Source: Bacilli bacterium (GTDB lineage Bacteria; Bacillota_I; Bacilli_A; RF39; UBA660). From it: a stretch of 64,000 nucleotides of DNA. Below, one piece after another: positions 6,021 to 34,131 of the stretch. The DNA is taken from positions 5,442-69,441 of the forward strand of contig JAFUBW010000014.1 of NCBI GenBank assembly GCA_017459965.1, read 5' to 3'. Position numbers and translations under genes: made by a program. Under the pieces are notes generated by a model, which was not told where the DNA came from, did not search any database, and saw nothing but the letters and a program-made list of their open reading frames with translations. The number at the start of each line of letters is the position of its first letter. Within the stretch, counting starts at the first letter, position 1.

Positions 6021-6026
6021 TATATG

Positions 6027-11109: not shown

Positions 11110-11121
11110 TAAAAATATTAA

Positions 11122-11149: not shown

Positions 11150-11229
11150 GTAAAGTAAATAATAAAAATATTTGTATTTTCTTTAAAATGTGCTATAATA
11201 TCATAGGTTTAAAAAAAGGGAGAAGTATT

Positions 11230-13047: not shown

Positions 13048-13107
13048 AATAACTAAACATTTAGTTATTTTTTTATTTGTGATATAATTATATAAAGGTG
13101 ATAGTAA

Positions 13108-13692
13108 ATGAACATGAAAGATTTCTTAAAAGAGAAAAAACAACAAATTCAAGAAAAGAAAAAAGAAAAAGAAGAATTACAAGAACAAGCTAATTATAAT
13201 GTATATTCTTGGTATCAATTATATAAAAATAATTCAAGAGCATGTGCTGTAGGATTTATTATGCCAGATAATTATGAAATACATACTTCAACATCAACAT
13301 ATAGACATGACTCAGCAGCACAATTCTTATTTGCAAAATATTTTTCTAAAGATTTACAAAAAGAAGAAATAGAAGAAGATATTACATGGTTTAATTTACT
13401 TCCAAAATATTATAATACAATTTGTTTTGAACTTGTTTCACCGCTATATAATACCGCAGGTTCTGATATATTAATATTCTTACCAGATAAAATAAATGAA
13501 TTTCAAAAAGAAATTTTATATAAAATTCAAAATGAAATGGATTTTTATAATGAAAATATAAAAGTAAAAGTTAAATATCATGCTGGATTTAAAAAAAATG
13601 AAGATGACTTTGAAAGAATTGATGATATGTTAGATGCATATTATAAACTTGATAGAATTAATGAAAGAAGTGAATATTATGGAAAATTATAA
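13108..13692 (+). CDS. Hypothetical protein
   Basis: 194-aa ORF with an RBS (AAAGGTGA). No recognisable motif. It overlaps the PFOR start by 14 nt. Confidence 0.5.
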   Translation: MNMKDFLKEKKQQIQEKKKEKEELQEQANYNVYSWYQLYKNNSRACAVGFIMPDNYEIHTSTSTYRHDSAAQFLFAKYFSKDLQKEEIEEDITWFNLLPKYYNTICFELVSPLYNTAGSDILIFLPDKINEFQKEILYKIQNEMDFYNENIKVKVKYHAGFKKNEDDFERIDDMLDAYYKLDRINERSEYYGKL

Positions 13693-19250: not shown

Positions 19251-19281
19251 CAATTTAAAAAAAATATAATATTATTATTAT

Positions 19282-19371
19282 AGCGTAACGATATGTTACG
19301 TAAGCGCTTTTACAAGTTAAGGTGAAAGTGCAACCAAAACCCCCTGAAGGAGCCATTAGGCTCCATTTTTT
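19282..19371 (+). ncRNA. Candidate ~90-nt structured RNA or orphan leader ending in the island att-core terminator
   Basis: TTGACA (19247-19252), a 17-nt spacer, then TATTAT (19270-19275). The transcript has hairpins cgtaac/gttacg and gcgcttt/aaagtgc, then the ggagcc-atta-ggctcc terminator with T6. It has no ORF. Confidence 0.35.
19340..19371 (+). repeat. Island direct repeat, left copy (putative attL core)
   Basis: ccccctgaaggagccattaggctccatttttt, identical to 32294-32325. Confidence 0.7.
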
Positions 19372-19409
19372 GTTATAAAATAAGGGATTTTAGTAATTTA
19401 GATAGGTTC

Positions 19410-19429
19410 TACACACCCATCTACACACC
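19410..19429 (+). repeat. Tandem arm-type repeat, integrase-proximal copy
   Basis: tacacaccc-atc-tacacacc, identical to 32167-32186. It lies 38 nt inside the left core repeat. Confidence 0.6.
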
Positions 19430-19443
19430 CATATAGGGTATTA

Positions 19444-20565
19444 TTATACATTAAAAGTTATTTTATTTATTGAATTTACAACATCTATAAGTCTACTTTT
19501 ATACATGTGTGCATAGGTATTTAATGTCTCATCGATTTTAGAATGACCTAAATATTCTGCAACTACTGTTATATTTGCACCATTGTTAATTAATAGAGAT
19601 GCACATGAATGTCTAAAATCATGAACTCTAATACAATGTAATCCAGCTTCTTTTGCGATTTTATTCTTTCTATCTCGTATTTTAAAATTAGTAATAGGTT
19701 GATCTGTCCCAAATACAAACCATTTTTTATTAAAACCATAATATTTTGTATTTTCTTCAAATAATTGTTTTAAATGATTAATTAATATATCAGGTATTGG
19801 AAGTGTTCTAATACTTTTTTTAGTCTTTGGAGTAGTTAGATTATATGACTTAGAACCTTCACCACCTATAGATACGACATTTTTATTAATTCTAACTATT
19901 TTATTTTTAAAATCAATATCATTCCAAGTTAGACCTCTTAATTCACCTTTACGAAGTCCATCATAATATAGTGTTTCAAATAAACATATATATTTAATAT
20001 CTTTTTCTTTACTTATGAATTGTTGAAATTCATCAAAAGTATAAATTTCCATATCTTCTTCAATTTCATTAGGATTTTTAAAAGTTTCCATTTGCATATA
20101 AAACATATTGATTTCAAATCCATATCTTTTTATACCCCAATTAAGTACACTTTTAATAAATTTTTGAATATCATTTTTATAACTAGTTTTAATATCTAGT
20201 TTATTTATTTCTTTTCTCCAAATTTCATAATGCTTGTAAGTTAAATCTTTTACTTTAATTTTATCAAATATTTTCATATATCTAATTCTATCTTTATAAG
20301 TCTTTAAAGTAGTTTGTTTAACTTTATCTTCTTGATATTCGTAATATTGTGTATACAATTCTTTAAATGTCATATTTTTACAATCAATATAATTATTTGA
20401 ACTACTAACAAAATCTCTTTCAGCAATAAGAGCTTCTTTTTTAGTAAAGTATGCTTTAGATGTATATTTAGTTCTAGTTCCATTTAATGATGGAATCCAT
20501 TGATAAAAAATCCATTTTCTACCATCTTTAGTCCATCTATTTTGTGGTAATAGTTTTGTTGCCAT
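19444..20565 (-). CDS. int: Tyrosine-type site-specific integrase
   Basis: Start placed at MATKLL after GGAGG. The C-terminal catalytic region has LRKGELRGLTW (Arg), HDFRHSCASLL (H-x-x-R) and GHSKIDETLNTYAH (the Tyr region). Confidence 0.9.
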   Translation of the reverse strand: MATKLLPQNRWTKDGRKWIFYQWIPSLNGTRTKYTSKAYFTKKEALIAERDFVSSSNNYIDCKNMTFKELYTQYYEYQEDKVKQTTLKTYKDRIRYMKIFDKIKVKDLTYKHYEIWRKEINKLDIKTSYKNDIQKFIKSVLNWGIKRYGFEINMFYMQMETFKNPNEIEEDMEIYTFDEFQQFISKEKDIKYICLFETLYYDGLRKGELRGLTWNDIDFKNKIVRINKNVVSIGGEGSKSYNLTTPKTKKSIRTLPIPDILINHLKQLFEENTKYYGFNKKWFVFGTDQPITNFKIRDRKNKIAKEAGLHCIRVHDFRHSCASLLINNGANITVVAEYLGHSKIDETLNTYAHMYKSRLIDVVNSINKITFNV

Positions 20566-20684
20566 TTTACCTCCTTTTCTTACAAAACAATCACTCACTC
20601 CTAAATCTATTTTAACACGAAATTTAGACCGTTTAAATATAAAATTAGAAGTGATATGAATATTTTATTTAATATATTTTTTTG

Positions 20685-20753
20685 TGGGGTATGGGTCCTC
20701 CTATACAGCGAATTTTTAATGCTAGGAGTAAAAATTCAGAGCTGGCTAGGACA
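20685..20753 (-). repeat. 68-nt two-hairpin element, copy 1 (inverted relative to copies 2 and 3)
   Basis: The reverse complement reads atgtcctagccagctctgaatttttactcctagcattaaaaattcgctgtataggaggacccatacccc. It starts at the stop codon of the RepA-like gene. Confidence 0.8.
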
Positions 20754-21705
20754 TGATATCTTCGAATTCTATATTAGGTTCTTCATATAAAAAGTGATAT
20801 AATCTTTCATTACTTTTTCTATGATACTCAATTTTTAATCCTTCTTTTTCTAATTCCTTAATGTATTTATGAATTAATGTTCCATATACTGATGGAAGTA
20901 TAGGTTTATTATATTTGTTAGCAAGTTCAGTAGCAGTTATTGTAATATCTTTATGTTTAGAACAATAATTTACTAAAAATATTAATGCTTCAGGCATAGT
21001 ACTTTCATTTAATTCATTTGTAATATTTAAAATACAATTATCATCTTTTTTTAAATGAAACTCCTTACTTTCATAATCTCTATTTGTAATATTCAATTTA
21101 TAATATTTACTATTATTTTCAGATTGTTCTAATTTTAATATTCCATCAACCGATCCATCTAATGCTGTACTACCTAATGATTTACCTTTTTTGTTTAAAT
21201 GATGTAAAAATAGAATTGATATATTATACACATTACACAAATATCTAAGTTTTGGTAAAACATATTGACCAACATCTTGATAACTATTAATATCGTATTC
21301 AGTATCAAATTCAATATCTTTTAACATATCAACAATTACTAATTTACCATCTTGATTTCTAGCAAAATCACTAATATCTACTTCTAAATCTTTTAAAAAA
21401 AAATTAGAATATTCATTTCTATCAATATACTGAAAATCATTATCTTTAAATTTTATATTCATCATATTTATTCTTTCTAATAATTGATTACCAGAACTTT
21501 CAGTACTTATATATAAAATAGGTGAGTGATTTGTATTACATTCTAAAAAAGGTTTATTATTAGCAATACAATCTGAAATTTGAAGTGCTAACATAGATTT
21601 ACCAACTTTTGGATATGCAATTAAGCAGTATAATCCATTAGTTCTCATAATTTCATCAATAATATAATCTTTCTTTATGTATTTTATTTCATTTATAGAT
21701 TTCAT
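20746..21705 (-). CDS. RecA-fold AAA ATPase, RepA/AAA_25-like (island replication or primase-helicase-type protein)
   Basis: Walker A (AYPKVGKS) and Walker B-like (LVIVDMLKD), then LFLHHLNKKG, typical of RepA-like/AAA_25 proteins. A likely wHTH lies at the C-terminus. It is translationally coupled to the upstream small gene. Confidence 0.65.
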   Translation of the reverse strand: MKSINEIKYIKKDYIIDEIMRTNGLYCLIAYPKVGKSMLALQISDCIANNKPFLECNTNHSPILYISTESSGNQLLERINMMNIKFKDNDFQYIDRNEYSNFFLKDLEVDISDFARNQDGKLVIVDMLKDIEFDTEYDINSYQDVGQYVLPKLRYLCNVYNISILFLHHLNKKGKSLGSTALDGSVDGILKLEQSENNSKYYKLNITNRDYESKEFHLKKDDNCILNITNELNESTMPEALIFLVNYCSKHKDITITATELANKYNKPILPSVYGTLIHKYIKELEKEGLKIEYHRKSNERLYHFLYEEPNIEFEDIMS

Positions 21706-21706: not shown

Positions 21707-21943
21707 TTATACTCCTTTCTTTATTCTTGATTCTAAATAATTAATATCTATATTAAGATACTTTATAACTTCATTCATTGGAATATGATGATTTGGAAGT
21801 TTATATCCTTTTTCTATTAAATTATTTCTAATTTCTTTTTTAATTTTTAATGCATTATTTCTTCCTATTTCACCTAATTTCATTAAATCTTCTAAATTAC
21901 ACCATTGTTTTGAAATTAATTTTAATGTTTCTTCAGCAGTCAT
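21707..21943 (-). CDS. DUF3173-like small DNA-binding protein (candidate excisionase or regulator)
   Basis: Start placed at MTAEE after AAGGAAAGGA. LEDLMKLGEIGRNNALKIKKEIRNNLIEKGYKLPNHHIPMNEVIKYL resembles the DUF3173 pattern found next to integrases in Firmicutes IMEs. Confidence 0.5.
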   Translation of the reverse strand: MTAEETLKLISKQWCNLEDLMKLGEIGRNNALKIKKEIRNNLIEKGYKLPNHHIPMNEVIKYLNIDINYLESRIKKGV

Positions 21944-21987
21944 ATCTTTCACATCCTTTCCTTTAAATTTTTTGAAAGATTTTTTGT

Positions 21988-22113
21988 CCTTCAATTGTTT
22001 GTACAAAAATCAGTAAAAAGTTAAGTCTATTTTTAAAACTTTTTAAATTTTTTTATAAAAAAATTAAATCTCCTTCAATTATTTGTACCGAAATTGGCAA
22101 AAAGTATAGTCTA
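21988..22113. repeat. Two ~42-nt direct repeats (iteron/operator-like) upstream of the DUF3173-RepA operon
   Basis: tccttcaattgtttgtacaaaaatcagtaaaaagttaagtcta (21988-22029) compared with tccttcaattatttgtaccgaaattggcaaaaagtatagtcta (22071-22113). They are spaced about 83 nt apart. Confidence 0.7.
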
Positions 22114-22528: not shown

Positions 22529-23512
22529 ATGAAGATTAATAAAAATATTATTTTGTATTTATTATTATTTATTTTATTTATAATTCCAATAAATGTATTT
22601 GCAACAGGTGGTGGATTGAGAAAAAGTAGCATAAAAACATGTCCAAATGGAATAACTTATGGTTTACATAGTGATGGAAATGGAGGTACACATTGGCATG
22701 TTGCTGCAACTAATGGTAATGGATATTTTGCAAAAGGAGATGCAATATATTCTGATCCATGCCCTGGTCATAATACAAATCAGGGAACTGCAGGGCAAAC
22801 TAGTGGATCGAATAATTATAACAATTCTATGAAAAATGATTCGACTAACAATGTAAATAAAGAAGTAGTTAAAAGTAGTGATGTAAGTATCAAAAGTATT
22901 AAAATAGAAGATGATATAATTACTAATATTTCTGATGTTATGGAATACGAAGTGACTAAAAAATCAATAAGTATATATGTTGTTCTAAATGATATAAAAT
23001 CTAAATATGAAATAGAAGGAAATACTGATAATTTATCTAAAACAGGTATTAATAAAGTAAAAATAAAAGTAACTGCAGAAAATGATAACGAAAAAACATA
23101 TGAATTAAATATAAAAAGAAAAGTTATTGAATCTAATGTTGTAATAAATGAATTCAAGGTTAATGATAGTGTAATTGAATTTGAAAATAAAAAAGGAAGT
23201 ACATTTGTGTTTTATTGGACAAAAAAATTTGATTATGATTATATATTAAGTGATTCAAAATCAACTTTAAAATTATTTAATAATGGTAAGGAAATTAAAA
23301 ATACAAATTTAAAAGTTGGATATAACAAGTATGAACTAGTAATAATAGATGAAGATGGAAATGAAAATGATTATAAATTGGAAATTCAAAGAATATCCAT
23401 TATAGGATCTATAATATTGACAATTTTATCAATAGGATTCTTTGCATTAATTGCCATTGCAATAGTTATGCTATTAAAATATAAAAAAAAGAAAAATAGT
23501 AGAAAATATTGA
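22529..23512 (+). CDS. Surface protein: signal peptide, His/Cys-containing N-terminal module, cadherin-like beta-sandwich repeats, C-terminal TM anchor
   Basis: Signal peptide ends INVFA-TGG. GGTHWHVA and CPGHN motifs follow. Segments such as IKVTAENDNEKTYELNIKRK and the similar YELVIIDEDGNENDYKLEIQR match the clostridial cadherin-like domain pattern. The C-terminus is a hydrophobic helix plus KKKKN. Confidence 0.6.
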   Translation: MKINKNIILYLLLFILFIIPINVFATGGGLRKSSIKTCPNGITYGLHSDGNGGTHWHVAATNGNGYFAKGDAIYSDPCPGHNTNQGTAGQTSGSNNYNNSMKNDSTNNVNKEVVKSSDVSIKSIKIEDDIITNISDVMEYEVTKKSISIYVVLNDIKSKYEIEGNTDNLSKTGINKVKIKVTAENDNEKTYELNIKRKVIESNVVINEFKVNDSVIEFENKKGSTFVFYWTKKFDYDYILSDSKSTLKLFNNGKEIKNTNLKVGYNKYELVIIDEDGNENDYKLEIQRISIIGSIILTILSIGFFALIAIAIVMLLKYKKKKNSRKY

Positions 23513-23536
23513 CAAATTTTGGAAAAAATATATAAT
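23509..23536 (+). promoter_or_regulatory. Promoter of the RiPP-like operon
   Basis: TTGACA (23509-23514), a 16-nt spacer, then TATAAT (23531-23536). Confidence 0.55.
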
Positions 23537-23653
23537 AATTTACAAATTGTATAGGTATAATATGCTCTAAAGATAATACGTAATAATTTTTATAGTATAC
23601 AATGATATAAAATCAGTAATGATTTTATATAAATAAGAAAGGGAGGGAAGGCT

Positions 23654-23740
23654 ATGAAAAAAATTAATCCTACTATAACAATAGTAGAAGTTAAGAAAAA
23701 TGAAACTTGCATGGCAGTTGGTGTTTGTCACTGTAACTAA
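23654..23740 (+). CDS. Candidate RiPP precursor peptide (28 aa): MKKINPTITIVEVKKNETCMAVGVCHCN
   Basis: Not in the ORF track because it is too short. It has a strong SD (GGGAGGGAAGG) 3 nt before the ATG. A Lys/Ile-rich putative leader is followed by a 10-residue C-terminus with 3 Cys. It lies 76 nt upstream of a radical SAM/SPASM gene. Confidence 0.6.
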   Translation: MKKINPTITIVEVKKNETCMAVGVCHCN

Positions 23741-23760
23741 TATGCATCCTACTTTTCTAG

Positions 23761-23789
23761 TGCATTGGCTTTAATGCCAATGCATTTTT
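23761..23789 (+). terminator. Hairpin plus T5 after the precursor ORF (likely partial terminator/attenuator)
   Basis: tgcattggc / gccaatgca 9-bp stem, 6-nt loop, TTTTT. It sits between the precursor and the first enzyme gene. Confidence 0.5.
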
Positions 23790-23816
23790 AAAATAAAGAT
23801 TAAGTGAGGGGATAAA

Positions 23817-25028
23817 ATGAGAGTATATATAAACGATTCATTAGTTATTGTAAATAATAAATTTGAAAATAATATATTTGCCTATGACAGATTAAATAGA
23901 ATTCAATATAATATAAATTCTGACACATTTGATGTTTTAGAAGATATAAAAAATAATGAGTATAAAGAGGAAGATTTATTAAAAATATATGATTCTTCGT
24001 TTATAAATCAACTTTTTGATATGGGTATTTTAACAACTAAAAAACAAAAAAATATCAATAATGTAAAAAGATTAGAAAAATATAATAATGCAAGAATTTT
24101 TGCTGAAATAACAAATAAGTGCAATTTAAAATGTAAACATTGTTATGGAAGTTTCTCATATAATAATTCTACAATACTTGACATTGATATTATGAAAAAA
24201 ATAATTGATAATGCATCATTAAATGGAGTGTATCAATTTGATCTTACCGGTGGGGAACCTTTACTTTATCCATATTTTGAAGAGTTATTACAGTATTTAT
24301 ATGAGTCGGGGATGTTAGTTAGAATTTTTTCTAATTTAACAGTGTATAATGATAATTATAAAAATATGATATTAAAATATGGTGTTAAAGATATTGTAAC
24401 AAGTATAGATTCATGCGATAAAAGAGCACACGAAGAATTTAGAGGACAGATTGGCTGCTTTGATAAAACTATTAATGCAATAAATGATCTAAAAAGTAAT
24501 AATGTAACAGTATCAGTTAATACAATGATAGGTGAGCATAATAAGAATGATATTGATGATTTAGTTAAATTTATTGATAGTTTAAAAGTTAGAAGTGTAT
24601 TAGATGTAATTGTTCCTGAAGGAAGAGCCAAAAATCTAAATGAAAATGTTGTAGAATCTGCAAAGATTATTAAGAATATATATGATAAATATTTAAATAT
24701 AATAGATAAATCTGCCGTTACAGTATATTGTGGAATTGGTGATAGATTTATTTATATAAAATCAGATGGTAATATTTATATTTGCCCAAGTTTAATATAT
24801 GATCAATATAAAATTGGTAATATTAATTCATTTGATGTAAAGAAAATTTGGAAAGCAATGAATTCAAAATTTAAGAATTTGAATTGTAAATACAGAAATG
24901 AAAAATGTGGTAAATGTAGTGGGGGATGTAGGGCAAGAGCACTACAATTAAATGGTAGCATAGAAGCAAGAGATGATGTTTATTGCATATTAAATGAAGT
25001 AGGTGATTATATATGCGAAAATATTTAG
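23817..25028 (+). CDS. Radical SAM enzyme with an N-terminal RRE-like (PqqD-like) region and a C-terminal SPASM domain
   Basis: CNLKCKHC (CxxxCxxC) and GGEPLL motifs. The C-terminus has CGIGDRFIYIKSDGNIYIC (C-x12-G-x4-C), then CKYRNEKCGKCSGGC and a final Cys, which is SPASM-like. The first ~85 aa precede the radical SAM core. Confidence 0.8.
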   Translation: MRVYINDSLVIVNNKFENNIFAYDRLNRIQYNINSDTFDVLEDIKNNEYKEEDLLKIYDSSFINQLFDMGILTTKKQKNINNVKRLEKYNNARIFAEITNKCNLKCKHCYGSFSYNNSTILDIDIMKKIIDNASLNGVYQFDLTGGEPLLYPYFEELLQYLYESGMLVRIFSNLTVYNDNYKNMILKYGVKDIVTSIDSCDKRAHEEFRGQIGCFDKTINAINDLKSNNVTVSVNTMIGEHNKNDIDDLVKFIDSLKVRSVLDVIVPEGRAKNLNENVVESAKIIKNIYDKYLNIIDKSAVTVYCGIGDRFIYIKSDGNIYICPSLIYDQYKIGNINSFDVKKIWKAMNSKFKNLNCKYRNEKCGKCSGGCRARALQLNGSIEARDDVYCILNEVGDYICENI

Positions 25029-25831
25029 ATATGGAAAATGCTACTTTAGAAGTACAATTTAAAAATATAAAAGATTATAGTATTTTATTAGATAATAATT
25101 CTAATGAAATTATATTACAAAATTTTAAAAGAGTTATATTTCACATTGATGAAAAATATATTAAAGAGTTATATGATATATTAAAAGAAAAATTTGAAAA
25201 TGAAAATATCTTAGCAATGATTTATTCAAATATTACTAAAATTCCAAAATATGATGTTATTGATAATATTATTTTTGTTAATACTAATGAATCAAATATA
25301 ATTAAAAGTGATAATATATTTAATTTAATATCATTAAAAGATGATAATGTTAAAAAAGTTGCAGATATAATTAAAGATGATTCTAATATAATGATTAATC
25401 CTATCATAGATGTTAATAATATTTCAAAATTTTTTGAAACATTTAATGAATTAACAGAATTAATAGATGGGAAAAGAATCAATTTAAATGGTTATATTAT
25501 TCCAAGCTTTTTGATGAGAGAACATCCATGTAATGCATATTTATGCGATGGATGTCATTGTAAAAAAGAAATAAGTTGTTTGCCCAAATATATAACAATT
25601 AATAGTGATTTTGAAGTATATCCTCATGATTTATTTTATAATAAATTAAGAATCGGTAATATTAATAACAAAAAAATAACTGATGTATTAGAAAAATATT
25701 ATAGCTCAGATTCTTACAATGAATTTATTAAGTATAGTAAAAAAGTATTTATAAAATATTTATCTCACTATCCTTATCAATATATGCCTATTGTTGAATA
25801 TATTAGAATGGAGATAGAAAATGATAAATAA
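25013..25831 (+). CDS. Cys-rich SPASM/twitch-like accessory protein with no radical SAM core
   Basis: Overlaps both neighbours. It has a CNAYLCDGCHCKKEISC cluster followed by INSDFEVYPHD...LRIGNINNKKITDVLEKY, which resembles the SPASM beta-hairpin/GN-I region. No CxxxCxxC motif. The start could be 25013 or 25031. Confidence 0.5.
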   Translation: MRKYLDMENATLEVQFKNIKDYSILLDNNSNEIILQNFKRVIFHIDEKYIKELYDILKEKFENENILAMIYSNITKIPKYDVIDNIIFVNTNESNIIKSDNIFNLISLKDDNVKKVADIIKDDSNIMINPIIDVNNISKFFETFNELTELIDGKRINLNGYIIPSFLMREHPCNAYLCDGCHCKKEISCLPKYITINSDFEVYPHDLFYNKLRIGNINNKKITDVLEKYYSSDSYNEFIKYSKKVFIKYLSHYPYQYMPIVEYIRMEIENDK

Positions 25832-26729
25832 AGCAAATATTATACTAACTCATAATTGCAATTTAAGCTGTAAGCACTGTTACTTAGATGCTAAAAGTAG
25901 TAAAGAAGATTTTAAAGAAAATTATGAATTGGTAAAGGAATTAATTGACCAATTAAAAAAAGATAACATAAATAATGTAATGTTTACTGGTGGAGAATGT
26001 ATGACTTTTCCTTATTTAAAAGAACTGATTAAGTATGCAAAAGAATTAAATATGAAAGTATCTATATTCACAAATGGAATGATGTTTGATAAAGAAATAT
26101 TTGATATGATAGATTATATTAATATTAGTGTGGATGGGGATAAGAATATACATAATTTTATTAGACAAAATAAAAATTCTTATGATAATATTATAAGTCT
26201 TTTAGATTACCTAAAACAAATAGATAAAAATACTACAATACAGTATACTATTAATAATTTAAATATTGATAAATTAGATTCACTTATTGATTTAGCGTTA
26301 AATCATCTCAATATAAGAACTGTTCGATTAGTTTTTGTTTCAAATATTGGTAGAGCTAGGAAGAATAATATTTATTGTAATAAAGATGATATAGAAAAAA
26401 CGTATAAAAAACTTGATGAATTGTACTTAAAAACAAAATATCATATTCAATTTGTGCCAAATTTAGTAAAGAAATATGATTTTGAAAATTACTATTTGTC
26501 TGGAGATTTAGGATTTCCATTATGGTTTGATATACCATCTAATAAATACTATGTATTATCTGAAAAAGTGTCAAAGAGTAAAAAAATTTCAGAATATAAG
26601 AAGAGGGATGTTGAAGAAGAATCTAATCATTTCTTGGAAACATTAAAAAACAATAAAGAAAAAATAATAAAACAAGAATATATTGATGTAGAATATGAAA
26701 TAGAAAAATTAGTTAAGGGGGAAAAATAA
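25821..26729 (+). CDS. Radical SAM core protein (no C-terminal Cys-rich domain)
   Basis: CNLSCKHC (CxxxCxxC) at residues 12-19, then FTGGEC and IFTNG motifs. The C-terminal 150 aa lack Cys. Confidence 0.75.
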   Translation: MINKANIILTHNCNLSCKHCYLDAKSSKEDFKENYELVKELIDQLKKDNINNVMFTGGECMTFPYLKELIKYAKELNMKVSIFTNGMMFDKEIFDMIDYINISVDGDKNIHNFIRQNKNSYDNIISLLDYLKQIDKNTTIQYTINNLNIDKLDSLIDLALNHLNIRTVRLVFVSNIGRARKNNIYCNKDDIEKTYKKLDELYLKTKYHIQFVPNLVKKYDFENYYLSGDLGFPLWFDIPSNKYYVLSEKVSKSKKISEYKKRDVEEESNHFLETLKNNKEKIIKQEYIDVEYEIEKLVKGEK

Positions 26730-28675
26730 TGGAAAAAAAAGTGATGACATTAGGTGTTTTTGCACATGCAAATGCTGGGAAAACTACAATTACAGAACAA
26801 TTACTTTATCACACTAATGTTAAGAAAAAAACTGGAAGAGTTGATCATGGTGATACTACAACCGACAATTTAAAAGTGGAACAGGATAGAGGTATAACTG
26901 TAAGATCATCTATGGTAACTATGCCTTTAGACGACAGAATTATTCAGTTAATAGATACACCAGGACATGTAGACTTTTCTGCAGAAGTTGAAAGAGCCAT
27001 AAGTGTTTTAGATGGTGCAATATTAGTTGTATCAGGAGTTGAAAGAGTAGAACCTCAAACACAAGTAATATGGAAAATATTACAAGAAAGAAAAGTACCA
27101 ACTATCATATTTGTCAATAAAATGGATAGGATGGGAGCGGATTATGATAAAACAATTAGAGAAATGCAAACAAAATTGAATATAAATATATTACCTATTG
27201 TTAATGTAAAGAAAAATATTCAAACTAATGAATTATCTTATGAAGACGTAAAAATTGAAAATATTATAGAAGAACTTGCAAATGTCGATGATCACATATT
27301 AGAAAAGTATATTAATGAAGATAAAATATCTAGAGATTGGTTATATGATAAAGTAAAAGAACTATCATATAGTGGTAATTTACATTTTGTTTATGGTGGT
27401 AGTGCTTTAAATGATGATGGTATGTTAAGATTAATTGATGGAATAAAAGAATTTTTACCAACAGCTAGTAAAAAGAAAACAGATGAATTTTCTGGATATG
27501 TTTATACTGTTAAGAGAGATAATGGTGTTAGAGAATTATACGTTAAGGTATTAGATGGTGAATTAGAAAATAGAAAAGAATTTGTTGATTTAGAAGGTAA
27601 CAAACAAAGAATAAGAACTTTAACATATTTAGATGGAGATAAAAGGGTTAGAAAAGATAAATTAGAAACAGGAGAAATTGGAATAGTTACTGGATTAGAT
27701 TATAAGTGTGGACAAGTAATTGGTGCACCGCAACCTGATTTTAAATCTACATCATTCGTAAATCCATTATTTCATGTAACTGTAAGTGTTGAAGACAAAG
27801 CAAAAATACCAGAATTAGTTAATGCATTAGAAGCATTAAACGATGAAGATCCTGATTTGCATTTACAATTTGATAAATTTACTAATGAAATAAGCATTGA
27901 TCTAATGGGACCATTACAAACTGAAATAATTGATAATTTATTAAATGAAAGATTTGGAATTAAAGCTGATTTTTCAAAACCAATAATAATACATAAAGAA
28001 ACTCCAATTTCAATTGGTAAAGGTATGGCAACATTTGATAGAGTTTCAGGTGTTGAATTTGAAATAAAACCATTACCAAGAGGAAGTGGATTAAAATATG
28101 AATCTCATTTTTCAACAGATTATTTATTTACAAAATATCAAAAACAAATTGAAAGACTTGTTTATATGTATGCTCAACAAGGATTATATGGATGGCAAAT
28201 TACAGATGCTCAAATTAATTTGATTGGAGGTAAAAGTGATTCAGTTTGTTCAGATCCGTCACATTTTAATATTGCTGTGCCTCTAGCACTTATGAGAAGT
28301 ATTAAAGATGCAGGTATGCAATTACTTGAACCATTGATGGATTATGAAGTAAGTACTCCAAATGATAGTTTTAGAAAAGTATTAGCAGCATTATCGAATT
28401 TAGGTTTAAAATATGAGCAAATAAATGATAATGGAGAAAATACTATTCTTCCTGGAACTGCTCCTTTGAGTGAGATGCTTGAATTACCTACAACAATTAC
28501 TAGATTAACTGGTGGACACGGAAGTATGATAAAAAAGCCAGCAGGGTATGAATTGAAGGGAACAAATGAAATTTTAGAAAAAAGATATATAGGACCAGAT
28601 CCTAGAAATGAAGAAATGTTTGCTATGGAAATGAATAGTAGCATAGATCATATTGATAGAGTAAAACGTAGATAG
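26729..28675 (+). CDS. Tet(M)/Tet(O)-like ribosomal-protection-type translational GTPase (EF-G superfamily)
   Basis: 648 aa. GVFAHANAGKTTITEQLLY, then TTTDNLKVEQDRGITV, DTPGHVDFSAEVERAISVLDGAILVVS and NKMD. The size and N-terminal region parallel Tet(M) as I recall it. The start shares one nucleotide with the upstream stop. Confidence 0.75.
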   Translation: MEKKVMTLGVFAHANAGKTTITEQLLYHTNVKKKTGRVDHGDTTTDNLKVEQDRGITVRSSMVTMPLDDRIIQLIDTPGHVDFSAEVERAISVLDGAILVVSGVERVEPQTQVIWKILQERKVPTIIFVNKMDRMGADYDKTIREMQTKLNINILPIVNVKKNIQTNELSYEDVKIENIIEELANVDDHILEKYINEDKISRDWLYDKVKELSYSGNLHFVYGGSALNDDGMLRLIDGIKEFLPTASKKKTDEFSGYVYTVKRDNGVRELYVKVLDGELENRKEFVDLEGNKQRIRTLTYLDGDKRVRKDKLETGEIGIVTGLDYKCGQVIGAPQPDFKSTSFVNPLFHVTVSVEDKAKIPELVNALEALNDEDPDLHLQFDKFTNEISIDLMGPLQTEIIDNLLNERFGIKADFSKPIIIHKETPISIGKGMATFDRVSGVEFEIKPLPRGSGLKYESHFSTDYLFTKYQKQIERLVYMYAQQGLYGWQITDAQINLIGGKSDSVCSDPSHFNIAVPLALMRSIKDAGMQLLEPLMDYEVSTPNDSFRKVLAALSNLGLKYEQINDNGENTILPGTAPLSEMLELPTTITRLTGGHGSMIKKPAGYELKGTNEILEKRYIGPDPRNEEMFAMEMNSSIDHIDRVKRR

Positions 28676-28688
28676 GGGGGATATTAAT

Positions 28689-29819
28689 ATGATAGATCCA
28701 AGATTAGAAAAAATGGCTCATACTATTATTGAACATTCACTTAAGATACAACCTGGTGAAAGAGTGTTAATTGATTCAACCAAAAATTGTAGTGAAATGA
28801 TAAAATATATGGTTAGATTAATTGCATCAAAAGGAGCTATTCCTTTAGTTTCATTGAAAGAGACCGACATAAAAAGAGAATTGATAATTAATGGGAGCAA
28901 AGAACAATTTGAATTAATGAAAATTCAGGACGAAGCTATATTAAATAATGTCGATGTTTATATTAATATGATGGATTCTGATAATTGTTATGATATGTCA
29001 GATATTCCTGATGAAAAAAGAAGTTTATATCAAAAATACTATTTTAAACCTATAAACTTCGAAATAATTGTTCCAAAATTAAGATGGATAACTGTGGATT
29101 ATCCTTCAGTATCTTCAGCTCAACAATTTGGTATGAGTACAGATGCCTATGAAAAATATTTCTTTGATGCAATGACTGTAGATTATAAAGATTTGTATAA
29201 AAAAATGATACCACTTAAAGATATATTAGATAAAGGAGAACATGTAGAGATTAAATCTCCAAAAATAAATTTATCTTTTGATATTGATGGATTAAATTCT
29301 AATATATGTAGTGGTGAAATTAATTTGCCTGATGGGGAAGTATTTATTGCACCAACTTTGTATTCTGCAAATGGTGAAATTGTGTTTAATACACCAACAA
29401 GATATCAAGGAAGTTCATTTGAAAGCATAAAATTAATTTTTAAAAATGGTAAAATTATTGATTATAATTCAAAAACGAATTTAGAAAAATTAAAAAATAT
29501 TTTGGAAAGTGATGATGGAAATAAATACATTGGTGAATTTGCATTTGGTACAAATCCAAATATAGATATACCAAGGAGTAATATTTTATTCGATGAAAAA
29601 ATTTTAGGATCATTTCATATAGCATTAGGTAATAGTCATTCATTAAGTGATAATGGAAATAAGGCATCTATTCATTGGGATATGGTAAATATGTTGACCA
29701 AAGAATATGGTGGTGGTAGAATAATAATTGATGATAAAATAATACAAGAAGATGGAATGTTTATTCCAGAAGAATTAAAACCATTGAATGAAAAGGTATT
29801 ATCAAAAAAATATTTTTAG
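28689..29819 (+). CDS. Aminopeptidase, M29 (AmpS/PepS/aminopeptidase T) family
   Basis: MIDPRLEKMAHTIIEHSLKIQPGERVLI is a typical M29 N-terminus. The later ...PDGEVFIAP... and ...HIALG... segments also fit. Confidence 0.75.
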   Translation: MIDPRLEKMAHTIIEHSLKIQPGERVLIDSTKNCSEMIKYMVRLIASKGAIPLVSLKETDIKRELIINGSKEQFELMKIQDEAILNNVDVYINMMDSDNCYDMSDIPDEKRSLYQKYYFKPINFEIIVPKLRWITVDYPSVSSAQQFGMSTDAYEKYFFDAMTVDYKDLYKKMIPLKDILDKGEHVEIKSPKINLSFDIDGLNSNICSGEINLPDGEVFIAPTLYSANGEIVFNTPTRYQGSSFESIKLIFKNGKIIDYNSKTNLEKLKNILESDDGNKYIGEFAFGTNPNIDIPRSNILFDEKILGSFHIALGNSHSLSDNGNKASIHWDMVNMLTKEYGGGRIIIDDKIIQEDGMFIPEELKPLNEKVLSKKYF

Positions 29820-29829
29820 GAGGATTAAT

Positions 29830-30303
29830 ATGATAACTTTAAAAAAAATTAGTGAAGAAAATATCGATTTACTAGATAATTTATTACAATTATATTTACA
29901 TGATGTAAGTTTACATTTTCCAATTGATTTAAACTCTAAAACTTGTAAATATGAATATGATGATTTAACAAAATATATTGACAATTCAAATAATTATGCT
30001 TATTTTTTCATGAATAAAGATGAAATACTTGGTTTTACTTTGATTGATAGTGAAGATGATAGTATGGTTGTTCAAGAAATGTTTATCTTAAATAATTATA
30101 AAAATAAAGGTCTTGGTGAAGAAGCTATTACTAAAGTTTTTGATGAATTCAAAGGTAATTGGATAATTAGATCTTTACCTTGTTCTCCTAAGTCAGAGAA
30201 TTTTTGGAAAAAGACTATAGAAAGATATACTAATAATAAATACGACATTGAATATGTAGGAAAATTTAATAGAGCCGTATTTAGATTTAACAATAATGAA
30301 TAA
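29830..30303 (+). CDS. GNAT-family N-acetyltransferase
   Basis: Start placed at the ATG after AGGAGG. QEMFILNNYKNKGLGEEAI matches the acetyl-CoA-binding motif A region (Q/R-x-x-G-x-G/A). Confidence 0.65.
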   Translation: MITLKKISEENIDLLDNLLQLYLHDVSLHFPIDLNSKTCKYEYDDLTKYIDNSNNYAYFFMNKDEILGFTLIDSEDDSMVVQEMFILNNYKNKGLGEEAITKVFDEFKGNWIIRSLPCSPKSENFWKKTIERYTNNKYDIEYVGKFNRAVFRFNNNE

Positions 30304-31477
30304 TTATATAAAAAATAAAAATAAAGAAATTGATATCTTGAGTGGTCATAATAATATTACTAATTATGATAACATTTTTGATATTTTAAGTAAAAAAGAA
30401 GAATTTATTAAAAAATTAAGAGAACAAAATGAAAAAATATATTATCATAATTTGACTAATAATAATCAAACAAAATTTAATAGTGATACTTTTTCTTATG
30501 AATATACATATGAAAGATTTAATGGGTTTATTGAAATACCTAACTTTGTTAATAATTTTTACAAATTAAAAAAAACAATTATAACTGATAATTATTTTAC
30601 TAATTGTGGTATGAGTGCGATTGTATCTTTGTTAACTTCAATTGTTTTAGGTAATAATATATCTGTAGATTTATTATATGATGAAACATATTTTGAAACT
30701 ATTAAATATCTAACAATGGTTAGCAAAGAAACAAATAATAGTAAGTTTTTATATGTTGATTCAATAGCTAGTAATTTTAATTTTAAAATTGAGCAATATG
30801 ATTTATCAAATTATATTGGTGTTATAATAGATACTACATGTTTTAAAGGATATGAATTTAAAAAAATGATTGAAACAATATATTCGAAAAATTTATTATG
30901 CGTGTTAGTACGAAGTCATACAAAATTAGACTTATTGGCAACAGAATATTCTCATTTAGGTTCAGTTTCATTTATATATCCTAATAATATGTCAGACATT
31001 AATAAAGAATTATTTGAAAAAATAAAATTAAATTGTAGACACTTAATTGGTGTTTATGGGGCTTGTGTTCCACCAAATAGATTTCCTGAATTTATGTTGA
31101 ATAAAGAAGTAAAAATATTAAATGAGGATAGATTAGATAGAGTAAAAAATAATAATGAAGAATTATTTAACTATTTGAATAAAAGAAACATAAATATTGT
31201 ATTACCAAATCACAAACAATTTTGTTTAATTTATTTAGGTAATAAAGAATATGAATTAGATGACATGAAGCAAAAAATTATTAATTTTTGTAATAGTTTT
31301 AAAAATAAATTTCCAGTATACCATGCTGTAAGTTTTGGTTTTGATTATATAGCTTTAGATTGTTATCAAAATTATATAGATAATACATATAAGATAAGAA
31401 TATGTATGAGTGATTATCCGCGTGAAATTAATAATAATTTTTATGAAGAATTATATTCATTTTTAAAAAATATATAA
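30296..31477 (+). CDS. Hypothetical enzyme with distant fold-type-I PLP (Cys/Met-metabolism-like) features
   Basis: NCGMSAIVSLL is close to SGMAAI, IIDTTCF is close to VDNTFA, and VRSHTKLD is close to S-x-TK, the PLP lysine motif. All are in the expected order. It overlaps the GNAT gene by 8 nt. The assignment is weak and motif-level only. Confidence 0.4.
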   Translation: MNNYIKNKNKEIDILSGHNNITNYDNIFDILSKKEEFIKKLREQNEKIYYHNLTNNNQTKFNSDTFSYEYTYERFNGFIEIPNFVNNFYKLKKTIITDNYFTNCGMSAIVSLLTSIVLGNNISVDLLYDETYFETIKYLTMVSKETNNSKFLYVDSIASNFNFKIEQYDLSNYIGVIIDTTCFKGYEFKKMIETIYSKNLLCVLVRSHTKLDLLATEYSHLGSVSFIYPNNMSDINKELFEKIKLNCRHLIGVYGACVPPNRFPEFMLNKEVKILNEDRLDRVKNNNEELFNYLNKRNINIVLPNHKQFCLIYLGNKEYELDDMKQKIINFCNSFKNKFPVYHAVSFGFDYIALDCYQNYIDNTYKIRICMSDYPREINNNFYEELYSFLKNI

Positions 31478-31525
31478 GTTCTGATGAATAAACTATATTT
31501 TTTAAAATTTATGGAGGTATAGAAT

Positions 31526-32086
31526 ATGAAAATAACATATGTAACAGGTAACTGGGCAAAACTAGAAGTTGCAAAAAAATATTTAAATCCACTAGGAATA
31601 GAAATAGATAATATTAAAATGGATACAATTGAAATACAAGCAGATACAACTGAAGAAGTAGCTAAATACTCTGCTAAATGGGCAAGTGAACAATTAAAAT
31701 GTGATGTACTAAAAAATGATTCAGGATTATTTATTGAAGGATTAAAAGGTTTCCCTGGAGTATATACAAAATATGCTGATGAAACAATAGGTGAAGATGG
31801 AGTACTTAAATTACTTGATGGTGTAGAAAATAGAAAAGCATATTTTATAGAAGTGTTAGCATATTGCGAACATGGGAAAGAACCAGTAACATTTACGAGT
31901 TATACTTATGGAACTATAGCAAAAGAAAAACAAGGTAAATATGGATGGAGTTGGGATTTTATATTTATTCCAGAAGGATCAGATAAAACATTAGGATGCT
32001 ATCCAGATGATGAAAGATTTAATTTTTGGGGAGAAGAAGCATACACAAAGTTTGCAGAATATTTAAAAAATAAACAAAACAAATAA
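31526..32086 (+). CDS. Non-canonical purine NTP pyrophosphatase (Ham1/ITPase/RdgB family)
   Basis: ITYVTGNWAKLEVAK, then IEIQADT, NDSGLFIEGLKGFPGVYTKY and WSWDFIF follow the Ham1 family pattern. Confidence 0.7.
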   Translation: MKITYVTGNWAKLEVAKKYLNPLGIEIDNIKMDTIEIQADTTEEVAKYSAKWASEQLKCDVLKNDSGLFIEGLKGFPGVYTKYADETIGEDGVLKLLDGVENRKAYFIEVLAYCEHGKEPVTFTSYTYGTIAKEKQGKYGWSWDFIFIPEGSDKTLGCYPDDERFNFWGEEAYTKFAEYLKNKQNK

Positions 32087-32118
32087 TAAAGTATATAAAT
32101 TAGTATAAATAAAAAATA

Positions 32119-32148
32119 CAAGGATAAATTAATAACCTTGTTTTTTTT
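32119..32148 (+). terminator. Intrinsic terminator ending the cargo operon
   Basis: caagg...ccttg hairpin followed by T8. Confidence 0.5.
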
Positions 32149-32166
32149 ATTAATTTTACACACCCA

Positions 32167-32186
32167 TCTACACACCAAAATATATA
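32167..32186 (+). repeat. Tandem arm-type repeat, distal copy
   Basis: tacacacccatctacacacc, identical to 19410-19429. It lies 107 nt inside the right core repeat. Confidence 0.6.
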
Positions 32187-32293: not shown

Positions 32294-32325
32294 CCCCCTG
32301 AAGGAGCCATTAGGCTCCATTTTTT
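32294..32325 (+). repeat. Island direct repeat, right copy (putative attR core)
   Basis: Identical 32-mer to 19340-19371. It is followed by the RBS and start of the pyrophosphatase-like gene. Confidence 0.7.
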
Positions 32326-32373
32326 TTATAAATTATAATTTGTGGTATAATTAAATGCAAGGAGGATTTGTAT

Positions 32374-32712
32374 ATGGATAGTAGAGAATATTTAGGTAAA
32401 GAATTATATATAAAAATTGATAGACCATTTGGAAGTAAACATCCAAAACATGGATTTATTTATCCAATTAATTATGGATATGTACCTAATACGATTAGTG
32501 GCGATGGAGAAGAATTAGATGCATATTTATTAGGAGTTTTTGAACCAGTAGATGATTATAATGGTAAATGTATTGCTATTATTCACAGAACAAATGATAA
32601 TGATGATAAATTAATAGTTGTACCATTAGGTAAAAATTATTCAGATGATGCAATAGAAGCATTAGTTGAATTTCAAGAGGAACATTTTAAACATGTAATT
32701 ATTAGAAAATAA
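32374..32712 (+). CDS. Small inorganic pyrophosphatase-like protein (family I PPase fold)
   Basis: YPINYGYVPNTISGDGEELDAYLL matches the family I PPase signature region (YP.NYGFIP.T...DGDP.D). It is only 112 aa. RBS is AAGGAGGA. Confidence 0.6.
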   Translation: MDSREYLGKELYIKIDRPFGSKHPKHGFIYPINYGYVPNTISGDGEELDAYLLGVFEPVDDYNGKCIAIIHRTNDNDDKLIVVPLGKNYSDDAIEALVEFQEEHFKHVIIRK

Positions 32713-32716: not shown

Positions 32717-32738
32717 GGAACCATTAGGTTCCTTTTTT
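32717..32738. terminator. Bidirectional terminator hairpin
   Basis: ggaacc-atta-ggttcc flanked by A5 and T6, between convergent genes. Confidence 0.6.
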
Positions 32739-34131
32739 ACATAGACTTTGAATAATTTTCACTATTATTTTTAATATTAATAACTATGTTTTCATTATTT
32801 CTTGTTTTCATAATAATGTTTGTATCATTTGGAAGATAACTAACTACATGTTCTAAATATTCGTTATCTCCATATGGTGTTTGTTTTATAAGATTCAATG
32901 TTTCATCAAAACTATATGTATTTTTTAAACAATTCTCAACTTGATTAATTCCTTTATTATGTGCCCATATACTAAGTAATTCACATTCTTCATCTGTTAA
33001 TTTATAATTGTATGCATTTTTATTGTTATTTTCAAGTATTTGATTTTCACAATATTCAAAAATCATACATCCGATTTCAATACTTTTTTCAGCATTTTCA
33101 AACTTTTTAATATCATCTTGATTAATACCATATTTTACATAATCATTTTCGTTTATTATACTATTTTTTAAATCATTTTTATAAATTGCTACTTTACTCA
33201 TTTTTTCATAGTCAGAAGATATATTATTTATTTCGTCACAATTTATTGTTACTAGATTTCCATCTATATCATTCATAGTATAATTATTCCAAATTTGTCT
33301 TTCTACTTGTAAAAGACCAACGCCTCCAACATCAGTATAATTAATATCTGATTTAGGATTTTCTTGACATATCATTGCGATTATTAATTTTTCATCAATC
33401 CCATATTTTTCAGAACAATGTCTTATACTATTTGAATATGAATCTATAATTTTTTGTATATATTCATTATTCGATCTATCTTCATAATTATATAAAAATT
33501 TATATATATCGTTTGATGAAGAAACTATTTCAGTTTGTAAAACACTTTCTTCAACCTTATCATCTTTATCACTATAAAATATAATTTTATAATTATCAGG
33601 ATTAGTATTAGTTTTCTCAGTATACATCATTGTTGTATCTATTTCATCAAATAATTCTTCAGCTTCTTTTTTTTCTTGTTTTTCCTTTTTTATTTCATTA
33701 ATATTATTATCTACATAAACAAAATCTAAATCATTATTTTCTTCATTATCAATATTGTTTTCTATATTAGTTTTGTTATATAAATCTGGATTTACCTTAT
33801 GGTCTATAAGTGAAGTAGAAAGAAATGTAACAGATAAAGTAGTTAAGAATGCAATTTTTTTAATATTCTTATTAATATGATTTACTTTTTTAGATGGAAT
33901 ACCAATATATTTTTTTAAAAAATCAATATCATAAATTCTATAATTTGAATCATTTTTAATTATATCTAATCGATTATTTCTTTTATAATCTTTAATTATT
34001 TTATTAATCTTTTTTACATCGTTATCATTATATTCATAGATTAATTTATTATAATTATATAATTGATAGTTGACGATAGCTTTTTTATTATTTTTATCTA
34101 TTAAATTAATTTGTAAATAATAATTATCCAT
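32737..34131 (-). CDS. Membrane-anchored protein with a lytic transglycosylase (SLT)-like domain
   Basis: TM segment near residue 95. The C-terminal region has LIIAMICQENP (catalytic Glu context), then GGVGLLQV and AHNKG, as in SLT/GEWL-type domains. Confidence 0.55.
   Translation of the reverse strand: MDNYYLQINLIDKNNKKAIVNYQLYNYNKLIYEYNDNDVKKINKIIKDYKRNNRLDIIKNDSNYRIYDIDFLKKYIGIPSKKVNHINKNIKKIAFLTTLSVTFLSTSLIDHKVNPDLYNKTNIENNIDNEENNDLDFVYVDNNINEIKKEKQEKKEAEELFDEIDTTMMYTEKTNTNPDNYKIIFYSDKDDKVEESVLQTEIVSSSNDIYKFLYNYEDRSNNEYIQKIIDSYSNSIRHCSEKYGIDEKLIIAMICQENPKSDINYTDVGGVGLLQVERQIWNNYTMNDIDGNLVTINCDEINNISSDYEKMSKVAIYKNDLKNSIINENDYVKYGINQDDIKKFENAEKSIEIGCMIFEYCENQILENNNKNAYNYKLTDEECELLSIWAHNKGINQVENCLKNTYSFDETLNLIKQTPYGDNEYLEHVVSYLPNDTNIIMKTRNNENIVINIKNNSENYSKSM

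Follow-up and report, generated by a model that had tools for sequence, protein, structure and literature searches.

In sactipeptide and ranthipeptide pathways, such as SkfA/SkfB, SboA/AlbA, PapA/PapB, thuricin and ruminococcin C, a short Cys-containing precursor is encoded 5' of a radical S-adenosylmethionine (SAM) enzyme that carries a CxxxCxxC motif and a full seven-Cys SPASM domain, and a hairpin follows the precursor gene. Self-resistance by a Tet(M)-like translational GTPase encoded within a biosynthetic cluster has a precedent in OtrA of the oxytetracycline producer. Here we analyzed an operon at positions 23,509 to 32,148 of a 64,000-nucleotide stretch of DNA (contig JAFUBW010000014.1; "the window" hereafter) from a Bacilli bacterium, an uncultured gut Firmicute with a GC content of 23 %. 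The locus belongs to a kind that is already known, a radical SAM peptide-maturation cluster with a putative self-resistance gene. New is the combination of a predicted split radical SAM enzyme, an embedded Tet(M)-like GTPase, an M29 peptidase, a GNAT acetyltransferase, a pyridoxal phosphate (PLP) enzyme and a nine-residue peptide core with a Cys-His-Cys (CHC) motif, for which no precedent was found. On balance, we favor the reading that the locus is a pathway for a peptide of the ribosomally synthesized, post-translationally modified class (RiPP), carried as cargo of a 13-kb island, in which the GTPase protects the ribosomes of the producer. The features of the operon are as follows.

23509..23536, + strand: consensus sigma-70-type promoter, TTGACA-16-TATAAT, 12/12 matches
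23654..23740, + strand: precursor peptide gene, 28 aa, MKKINPTITIVEVKKNETCMAVGVCHCN, with PTITIV in the putative leader and MAVGVCHCN as putative core
23759..23789, + strand: stem-loop with a T5 run after the precursor gene; nine Watson-Crick and two closing pairs at 23759-23786
23817..25028, + strand: rSAM1, radical SAM protein with a full seven-Cys SPASM domain and a ~95-aa N-terminal extension (Pfam, NCBIfam and PDB searches)
25013..25831, + strand: p272, radical-SAM-like fold without CxxxCxxC, with a C-terminal auxiliary-cluster-like domain (EHPCNAYLCxGxxC)
25821..26729, + strand: rSAM2, radical SAM core (C13/C17/C20) without SPASM or twitch domain, presumed partner of p272
26729..28675, + strand: translational GTPase of five domains, Tet(M)/Tet(O)-like, domain IV loop divergent; start codon overlapping the stop of rSAM2 (ATGA)
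28689..29819, + strand: M29 aminopeptidase, presumed leader-trimming enzyme (162.8 bits against a cut-off of 27), kept in homologous operons
29830..30303, + strand: GNAT acetyltransferase of 157 aa when read from the start called, only in the subgroup with peptides ending in CHCN
30296..31477, + strand: p393, fold-type-I PLP-dependent enzyme of divergent sequence, closest to methionine gamma-lyase; the lysine of RSxTK is invariant
31526..32086, + strand: Ham1/RdgB-type non-canonical purine nucleoside triphosphate pyrophosphatase, accessory, in this operon lineage only
32108..32151, + strand: weak terminator-like stem with a T8 run after Ham1; 6-bp core in an A/U-rich stem

The operon shares the precursor arrangement, the enzyme motifs and the hairpin with the sacti- and ranthipeptide pathways. 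It differs from them in its short core of ~9 residues with two conserved Cys, in the additional, predicted split radical SAM pair, translational GTPase, M29 peptidase, GNAT and PLP enzyme, and in being without an ABC exporter, an immunity gene or a dedicated leader protease. The original prediction, which was made from the DNA letters alone, had named a single consensus promoter, a 28-codon open reading frame (ORF) behind a strong Shine-Dalgarno sequence and a hairpin with a T5 run behind this ORF, and all of them were found at the positions listed. The promoter is the sole 12/12 site in 16.5 kb of scanned sequence; promoter-like sites as a whole were no more numerous in this region than in shuffled sequence, and what is notable is the perfect site alone. 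Directly 5' of the small ORF, AAGAAAGGGAGGGAAGG forms a strong purine-rich Shine-Dalgarno sequence. The junctions of the eight following genes (+76, -16, -11, -1, +13, +10, -8 and +48 nt) were all reproduced as well, where the +10 junction requires the GNAT start at 29830 that is called in public assemblies. The claim of a single terminator at the end of the operon was upheld in part: the stem and the T8 run are present (-12.9 kcal/mol, z = -3.1), but the stem is weak and failed the terminator scan. A stronger hairpin at 32303 is part of the attachment (att) site of the island.

With p272 as a marker, 34 relatives were obtained, and scans of genomes and metagenomes then yielded ~20 independent loci from gut metagenome-assembled genomes labelled Bacilli, Clostridia and similar. 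Their conserved core consists, in this order, of the small ORF, rSAM1, p272, rSAM2, the GTPase and M29, with protein identities to the window of 40-70 %. The small ORF recurs 5' of the rSAM1 gene in every homologous locus having upstream sequence, which, judged from these sequences, is far beyond chance. Among ~16 distinct precursor homologues, an N-terminal K/N-P-T-I-[TS]-[VI]-[VI] motif is followed by a variable linker and a C-terminal core of the pattern [MI/A]-A-[VI]-[GAS]-[VTS]-C-H-C-N or ending in C-H-C-S-A, with PTI and CH(C) being invariant. Since the codons vary synonymously (Ala GCA/GCT/GCG; Gly GGT/GGA/GGC/GGG; Cys TGT/TGC; His CAC/CAT), the amino acids of the peptide are under purifying selection, and the small ORF is, as had been proposed, a conserved neighbor of the radical SAM genes; no Rfam or NCBIfam family accounts for it. 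A crosslink at three Cys residues, as originally suggested, is not borne out by the homologues: in place of Cys19 of the window peptide they have Tyr, Phe, Lys or Val, therefore three Cys are not a conserved feature. The CHC pair of Cys is widely kept, and the most distant relatives keep Cys-His alone.

A stable hairpin was found 3' of the precursor stop codon in 15 of 15 entries folded, which correspond to 10 distinct loci (five entries repeat the sequence of the window itself), and the hairpin sequences differ between loci. In the window this region folds with -22.9 kcal/mol (z = -3.2). A 28-codon ORF followed by a terminator-like hairpin, with a Tet(M)-like gene downstream, resembles tet(M) in Tn916, which is preceded by a leader-peptide attenuator. 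The small ORF could accordingly be a regulatory leader peptide, the hairpin with its T-run an attenuator and the operon a drug-inducible module for resistance and detoxification, with the peptide not serving as a substrate, which we consider very improbable. When the 3' arm of the hairpin was forbidden and pairing of its 5' arm with the ORF was scored in the 10 loci, no conserved antiterminator was found: 0 of 11 nt paired in the window, and the loci scattered between 0 and 11. The lack of a consistent antiterminator argues against tet(M)-style attenuation, and an attenuator was rejected as the main explanation because ORF-hairpin pairing was inconsistent across these loci. The same conclusion is favored by the position of the hairpin, which begins only 5-19 nt after the stop codon in the 10 loci, by the amino-acid-level selection on the C-terminal residues of the peptide, by the position of the GTPase gene as the fifth gene after three radical-SAM-type proteins, and by locus L034, in which two tandem copies of the ORF are kept with the radical SAM genes and without a GTPase. 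The L034 precursors (~7100-11732) end in IAIGTCHCW and IAIGVCHRSGP and are accompanied by rSAM1, a protein of the size of a RiPP recognition element (RRE), a radical SAM/SPASM protein, p272 and rSAM2. Rfam searches of the leader, the hairpin and the att region of the window, at gathering thresholds and at E <= 1, detected no known RNA.

The first enzyme of the operon, rSAM1, matched PF04055 (E = 1e-20) and the SPASM family PF13186 (31.1 bits against a cut-off of 21.5). Its CxxxCxxC motif (C102/C106/C109) is invariant in 14 of 14 homologues, and of the SPASM residues Cys305, 323, 357, 364, 367, 371 and 390, six are likewise kept in all 14 and one in 13. In a sequence search of the PDB the closest solved relative of rSAM1 was the sactisynthase SkfB (E = 4e-18), a further likeness to sactipeptide systems, and its strongest whole-length NCBIfam alignments were with the peptide maturases of mycofactocin, StsB, AlbA, SkfB and PqqE, all of them below the cut-offs. 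Compared with the described maturases the scores are low (AlbA 86 vs 850, SkfB 82 vs 300, PapB 70 vs 340). Altogether, 58 of 58 NCBIfam matches were far below the cut-offs; no named maturase family was reached, and the radical SAM proteins reached no non-RiPP family either, in line with the earlier expectation that these proteins would not fall into a non-RiPP family.

Because PDB sequence searches were empty for p272 and p393, structure prediction and Foldseek were used for these two proteins. p272 has no Pfam family, and neither the single sequence nor a profile gave a match in the PDB. Its AlphaFold2 model (predicted local distance difference test score, pLDDT, 90.6) matched best to the radical SAM enzymes AbmM, SuiB and SkfB (template modeling score ~0.5). 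The EHPCNAYLCxGxxC segment is invariant and a marginal SPASM match, and full-length radical SAM proteins have a C-terminal domain that is homologous to the C-terminal half of p272. The p272 family is tiny: a search of 1.84 billion sequences yielded 165 representatives at E <= 1e-3. Together, p272 and rSAM2 are predicted to form a split radical enzyme. Of the two radical SAM systems claimed at first, the one is therefore a complete radical SAM/SPASM protein (rSAM1), while the other would be a split pair.

The GTPase contains the Pfam domains GTP_EFTU, EFG_III, EFG_IV and EFG_C. It aligned over its full length with TetO (E = 1e-88) and TetM (E = 1e-83) in structures 4v6v and 3j9y, whereas alignment with EF-G was good in the G domain only. 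Like Tet(M), Tet(O), TetB(P) and OtrA, it is a five-domain EF-G-like protein of ~640-650 aa with intact G motifs; G1, G3 and G4 (AHANAGKTT, DTPGH, NKMD) are invariant across the clade and therefore the protein should be active. In Tet(M) and Tet(O), the Y-S-P-V-S tip of loop III in domain IV contacts the tetracycline site and displaces tetracycline, as seen in published structures. The corresponding loop of the window protein, GGKSDSVCSDP, aligns with GLYYSPVSTP of Tet(M)/Tet(O) and is devoid of YSPVS; the consensus of the clade is G-[KQ]-x-D-[SN]-[VM]-[CG]-S-[DE]-P, and the 9-residue Tet insertion EVPPNPFWA before this loop is missing in the clade.

The GTPase could also be an ordinary tetracycline-resistance gene that is a chance neighbor in an unrelated biosynthetic operon. 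Indeed, close relatives are named 'TetM/TetW/TetO/TetS family' proteins by NCBI, and tet_protect is the best NCBIfam model. However, the score of 516.4 bits is below the cut-off of 775, the subfamily models gave 285-371 bits against cut-offs of 900-1425, and a tblastn search of plasmids returned genuine tet genes only, at no more than 33 % identity, with TetB(P) as the best ribosomal protection protein (33 %). Moreover, operons at 40-70 % protein identity keep the gene in one place, with junctions that overlap or nearly adjoin, and it is linked to radical SAM peptide operons rather than to tet elements. At >= 50 % identity, both clade members sampled lie in a peptide-rSAM1-p272-rSAM2-GTPase-M29 operon, and the co-occurrence with radical SAM genes in other genomes (40-100 % identity) was as anticipated. 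Taken together with the altered loop, these data leave a chance association with very little probability. In practice, tetracycline resistance is probably the wrong annotation for this GTPase branch. Since it has no tetracycline-displacing loop and scores below the cut-off, resistome surveys may over-call the clade as tet.

Pfam confirmed the earlier domain calls for the operon (Radical_SAM with SPASM, Radical_SAM alone, EF-G/Tet-like GTPase, M29, GNAT and Ham1). For p393, which had been called PLP-like, no Pfam match was obtained even at E <= 10, PF01053 included, and PDB searches with sequence and profile were empty; PF01053 is carried by just two distant homologues. The earlier guess holds nevertheless on structural grounds, as the AlphaFold2 model (pLDDT 88) matched fold-type-I PLP enzymes, with methionine gamma-lyases as top Foldseek matches (E = 6e-9) and 464 PDB matches at E <= 1e-3. 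R206, S207 and K210 of the R-S-H-T-K motif, D179 (I-I-D-T-T) and G105-M106 (GMS motif) are invariant in 29 sequences, and H208 is nearly so. We take K210 to be the Schiff-base lysine and D179 the aspartate contacting the pyridine nitrogen, as known for the family.

Paralogues of p393 were also seen in a second small-peptide operon (L020 5882-14158; L022 2168-8830). This operon encodes a 29-aa peptide, M(I/V)KFIKSLF.KKLDK.DLELLAICE[TS]HRS, followed by a PPDK_N/phosphoenolpyruvate-utilizing protein, ThiF, an ornithine/diaminopimelate-decarboxylase-like protein, the PLP enzyme and SBP_bac_5, and in L020 then by an ABC-F protein.

The locus had been described as a nine-gene unit, which the homologous loci do not support: GNAT and p393 follow M29 solely in the subgroup with peptides ending in CHCN, and Ham1, together with the integrase, the AAA_25 protein and the cadherin-like protein of the island, is confined to the window lineage. 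Ham1 was considered as a core component and rejected, being absent from all homologues of the clade other than the window. The first Cys of the peptide, Ham1 and the island genes thus fall outside the conserved system. Between rSAM1 and p272 an optional insert encodes an extra radical SAM/SPASM protein and a 67-74-aa protein without Pfam match. Several of the operons carry, on their 3' side, a gene for a house-cleaning nucleotide pyrophosphatase of the Ham1 or NUDIX type (Ham1 in the window, 31526-32086; L040 13946-14587; L039 15148-15678; L041 15099-15494), and this recurrence hints at a nucleotide-linked intermediate or by-product. In L037 (12310-13370) and also in L038, a TyrRS/TrpRS-like gene (tRNA-synt_1b) lies directly after M29. 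It appears split into ORFs of 67 and 288 aa and may be either a pseudogene or another determinant of self-resistance.

The data show which genes are present, how they are conserved, and what folds and motifs they encode; the chemical steps that follow here and the immunity role of the GTPase are inferred. The 28-aa peptide would be the substrate, with KPTI[TS]VV as recognition leader and the C-terminal 9-10 residues (MAVGVCHCN) as core. Accumulation of precursor mRNA over enzyme mRNA may be brought about by the hairpin behind its gene. rSAM1, as a relative of SkfB, is proposed to install a radical-mediated crosslink, most likely a thioether, on the invariant Cys-His-Cys, and a second modification would be introduced jointly by rSAM2, which provides the SAM cluster, and p272, which provides the auxiliary-cluster domain. 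M29 may then digest the leader from its N-terminus until it is blocked by the modified core. In the CHCN subgroup, GNAT and the methionine-gamma-lyase-like PLP enzyme could tailor or detoxify the released fragment, with N-acetylation and C-S or alpha/beta/gamma chemistry as candidate reactions. The GTPase, translationally coupled within the operon, would shield the ribosomes of the producer from the product in the manner of OtrA. If it does so, the product would be ribosome-targeting; as the operon travels with a Tet(M)-like GTPase of its own, the ribosome is probably the target. The embedded resistance-type GTPase would then flag a natural product of uncultured gut bacteria that acts on the ribosome, a self-resistance signal of the type used in antibiotic discovery, here on a RiPP-like scaffold without described relatives. 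To enzymology the locus would offer a split radical SAM enzyme, made of a pseudo-radical-SAM subunit with an auxiliary cluster and a subunit with the SAM cluster, and a PLP lyase-like enzyme within a peptide pathway. Consistent with the earlier statement that no homologous cluster was described, the arrangement was absent from NCBIfam equivalogs, Pfam, PADLOC, the PDB and the open-access literature searched; a description behind a paywall is possible.

Several observations weigh against a RiPP pathway of this kind. The N-terminus of rSAM1 (residues 1-98) had no Pfam match at E <= 10, so that no RRE was detected, and an hhalign comparison of this region with the stand-alone 67-74-aa proteins of the subgroup gave a probability of 0.3 %. 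The NCBIfam SkfB model aligns to rSAM1 from residue 36 onward only. Across the operon loci no exporter is conserved, and no immunity gene of the classical bacteriocin type either. Fold-type-I PLP enzymes normally take free amino acids, not peptides, and the recurring Ham1 and NUDIX genes are unexplained by the RiPP model. L034, with its radical SAM set and two tandem precursors, has no GTPase or M29 within 8 kb downstream. In addition, all host organisms are uncultured.

The missing exporter, the Ham1/NUDIX genes, the need of the PLP enzyme for a free amino acid and the absence of a GTPase from L034 keep alive a second reading, in which the product is a peptide-derived small molecule or cofactor retained in the cell. 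Following the logic of mycofactocin, pyrroloquinoline quinone (PQQ) and 3-thiaglutamate, the radical SAM enzymes would modify the C-terminal Cys-His, M29 would excise it and the PLP enzyme and GNAT would process the free amino acid, while the GTPase would be a functional partner or target of this molecule in an endogenous control of translation, not an immunity factor. As in mycofactocin (MftA-F), PQQ (PqqA-E), 3-thiaglutamate and pearlin biosynthesis, the reactive residues are placed at the C-terminus of a small peptide, and the order proposed here from the genes, with a radical SAM/SPASM enzyme first, peptidase release and tailoring, together with the absence of an exporter from every conserved copy, matches that of the mycofactocin and PQQ type. 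The very short C-terminal core, of which only Cys-His is shared with a sister clade, the preference of a fold-type-I PLP enzyme for a free amino-acid substrate, the occurrence of p393 paralogues alongside ThiF and a decarboxylase-like protein in the other small-peptide operon, and the alignment of the greater part of rSAM1 with the maturase models for mycofactocin and PQQ are in agreement with this view. However, rSAM1 scores only 104 vs 265 (mycofactocin) and 75.5 vs 381 (PQQ), the window enzymes are not orthologous to those of the mycofactocin, PQQ or pearlin systems (a creatininase-type MftE, PqqB/C/D and a PEARL are all missing), and no cofactor-using redox enzyme is linked to the operon. 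Mycofactocin, PQQ, 3-thiaglutamate and pearlin systems are furthermore without a ribosomal GTPase, and carriage on mobile elements, an island here and an integrative and conjugative element (ICE) in L032, better suits a weapon with its immunity. We therefore regard a retained small molecule as rather unlikely and keep the RiPP pathway with a protective GTPase as the preferred reading.

The locus also resembles microcin C (MccA-F), which has a tiny precursor ending in Asn, aminopeptidase processing and nearby nucleotide pyrophosphatases; GNAT is comparable to MccE, and an S66 peptidase comparable to MccF occurs in operons of the sister clade. In contrast to microcin C, no MccB/ThiF adenylyltransferase was found by Pfam among the nine proteins of the operon, and radical SAM chemistry, which is absent from the Mcc system, is central here. 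This resemblance is a lead only.

A sister clade of the GTPase (~48 % identity, 670-688 aa) is again named TetM/W/O/S-family by NCBI. All three loci sampled from it (L039 5442-15678, L040 6475-14587, L041 ~6450-15494) are related operons that encode a 32-aa peptide, a 450-aa radical SAM protein, the GTPase, a methyltransferase and an alanine-racemase-like protein. The peptide, MKSINKKVVVKAENVTTSNASCHYHI, ends in SCHYHI, and one variant has two SCMYH repeats; Cys-His is the only core element common to the window family and the sister clade. L039 and L041 begin with a LysR regulator and carry one or more S66 (MccF-like) peptidases, M29 and NUDIX at later positions, in place of which L040 has ABC-F and Ham1, with no M29 called. 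The link between a Cys-His peptide, a radical SAM protein and this GTPase branch, usually with M29, therefore extends well beyond the window family. We tentatively raise the possibility, which for now we hold to be the less probable one, that the operon and the sister clade represent a sizeable, unrecognized class of translation-directed peptide metabolites in anaerobic Firmicutes, built by radical chemistry on a C-terminal Cys-His motif, and that each dedicated Tet(M)-like GTPase recognizes a new ligand or ribosome state rather than tetracycline. If so, a branch of annotated tetracycline ribosomal protection proteins would serve endogenous natural products, as immunity factors or as partners, and a new small-molecule binding site on the ribosome, or a new mode of action, might be found.

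The operon had further been predicted to be cargo of a mobile island, and this is confirmed by a perfect 32-bp direct repeat (repeat family D1, 100 %) that encloses it together with an integrase and a primase/helicase-like gene; the two repeat copies are spaced 12,954 bp apart. The locus is a tyrosine-recombinase integrative island, as both the integrase and the flanking direct repeats are present. The features of the island outside the operon are listed here.

19340..19371, no strand: attL, left copy of the 32-bp repeat, CCCCCTGAAGGAGCCATTAGGCTCCATTTTTT, containing a terminator hairpin (terminator-like site 19349-19364)
19444..20598, - strand: tyrosine-recombinase integrase (PHROG 1 integrase, E = 3e-66; Pfam Phage_integrase)
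20746..21705, - strand: AAA_25/DnaB-like primase-helicase-type replication protein of the island
21707..22006, - strand: small protein of the island, encoded where an excisionase or regulator would be expected; matches no family
22529..23512, + strand: membrane-anchored protein with a cadherin-like domain, island cargo, not in homologous operons elsewhere
32294..32325, no strand: attR, right copy of the 32-bp repeat, end of the 12,954-bp island

The repeat with its terminator hairpin sits 3' of recG and 5' of a PPase-like gene, and because attR lies upstream of the latter, this gene is outside the island. GC content is ~23 % within the island and outside alike, and identical copies of the island are present in several ruminant-gut metagenome assemblies. 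Homologous operons were found in different contexts, namely the window island, the ICE in L032 and chromosomal sites. That the operon is carried by an integrase island in the window and by a conjugative element in another locus indicates that it is spreading horizontally. A megablast search with the operon (8.6 kb) against plasmid and phage collections gave no match, and a scan of 2.9 million viral contigs with p272 found no copy, so that carriage by phages is unsupported.

The island might also carry the operon as an anti-phage or abortive-infection system, in which the radical SAM proteins, upon infection, make a toxic nucleotide or peptide in a viperin-like manner and Ham1 and the GTPase limit self-damage. 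An integrase and a primase-helicase-like gene are also found in phage satellites, both radical SAM proteins are weak pVip matches in PADLOC (72-77 bits), and Ham1/NUDIX genes recur in the operons. The pVip matches are, however, at the level of a generic radical SAM core (NCBIfam viperin 63 vs a cut-off of 180), the other PADLOC matches are marginal (TerY E = 0.006, LeoA E = 2e-4), the phage records are as empty as the viral contigs, and most homologous operons do not reside on such islands. As the conserved precursor peptide would have no role either, we consider a defense function improbable, and a peptide-maturation pathway accounts better for the locus.

The insertion target of the island was a unit of promoter, ~65-nt leader and terminator hairpin (window 19247-19371 and 32294-32712). 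The interrupted unit originally lay 5' of the gene for the 114-aa PPase-like protein (32368-32712), and the core of the att site is the hairpin itself. The leader at the insertion site, which matched no Rfam family, might be a cis-regulatory RNA of an unknown type. CTACACACC(C) repeats near the island ends (19408-19432 and 32156-32177) resemble arm-type binding sites of integrases. Shortly beyond attR, a gene on the - strand (window 32737-34131) encodes a 464-aa Asn/Lys-rich protein that matched nothing in Pfam, PHROG or PADLOC; at the end of this gene lies a terminator hairpin (32717-32732) with 63 % identity to the att hairpin. Elsewhere in the window, at 6018-6611 on the + strand, a full-length OLE (ornate large extremophilic) RNA (RF01071) was detected with 361 bits.

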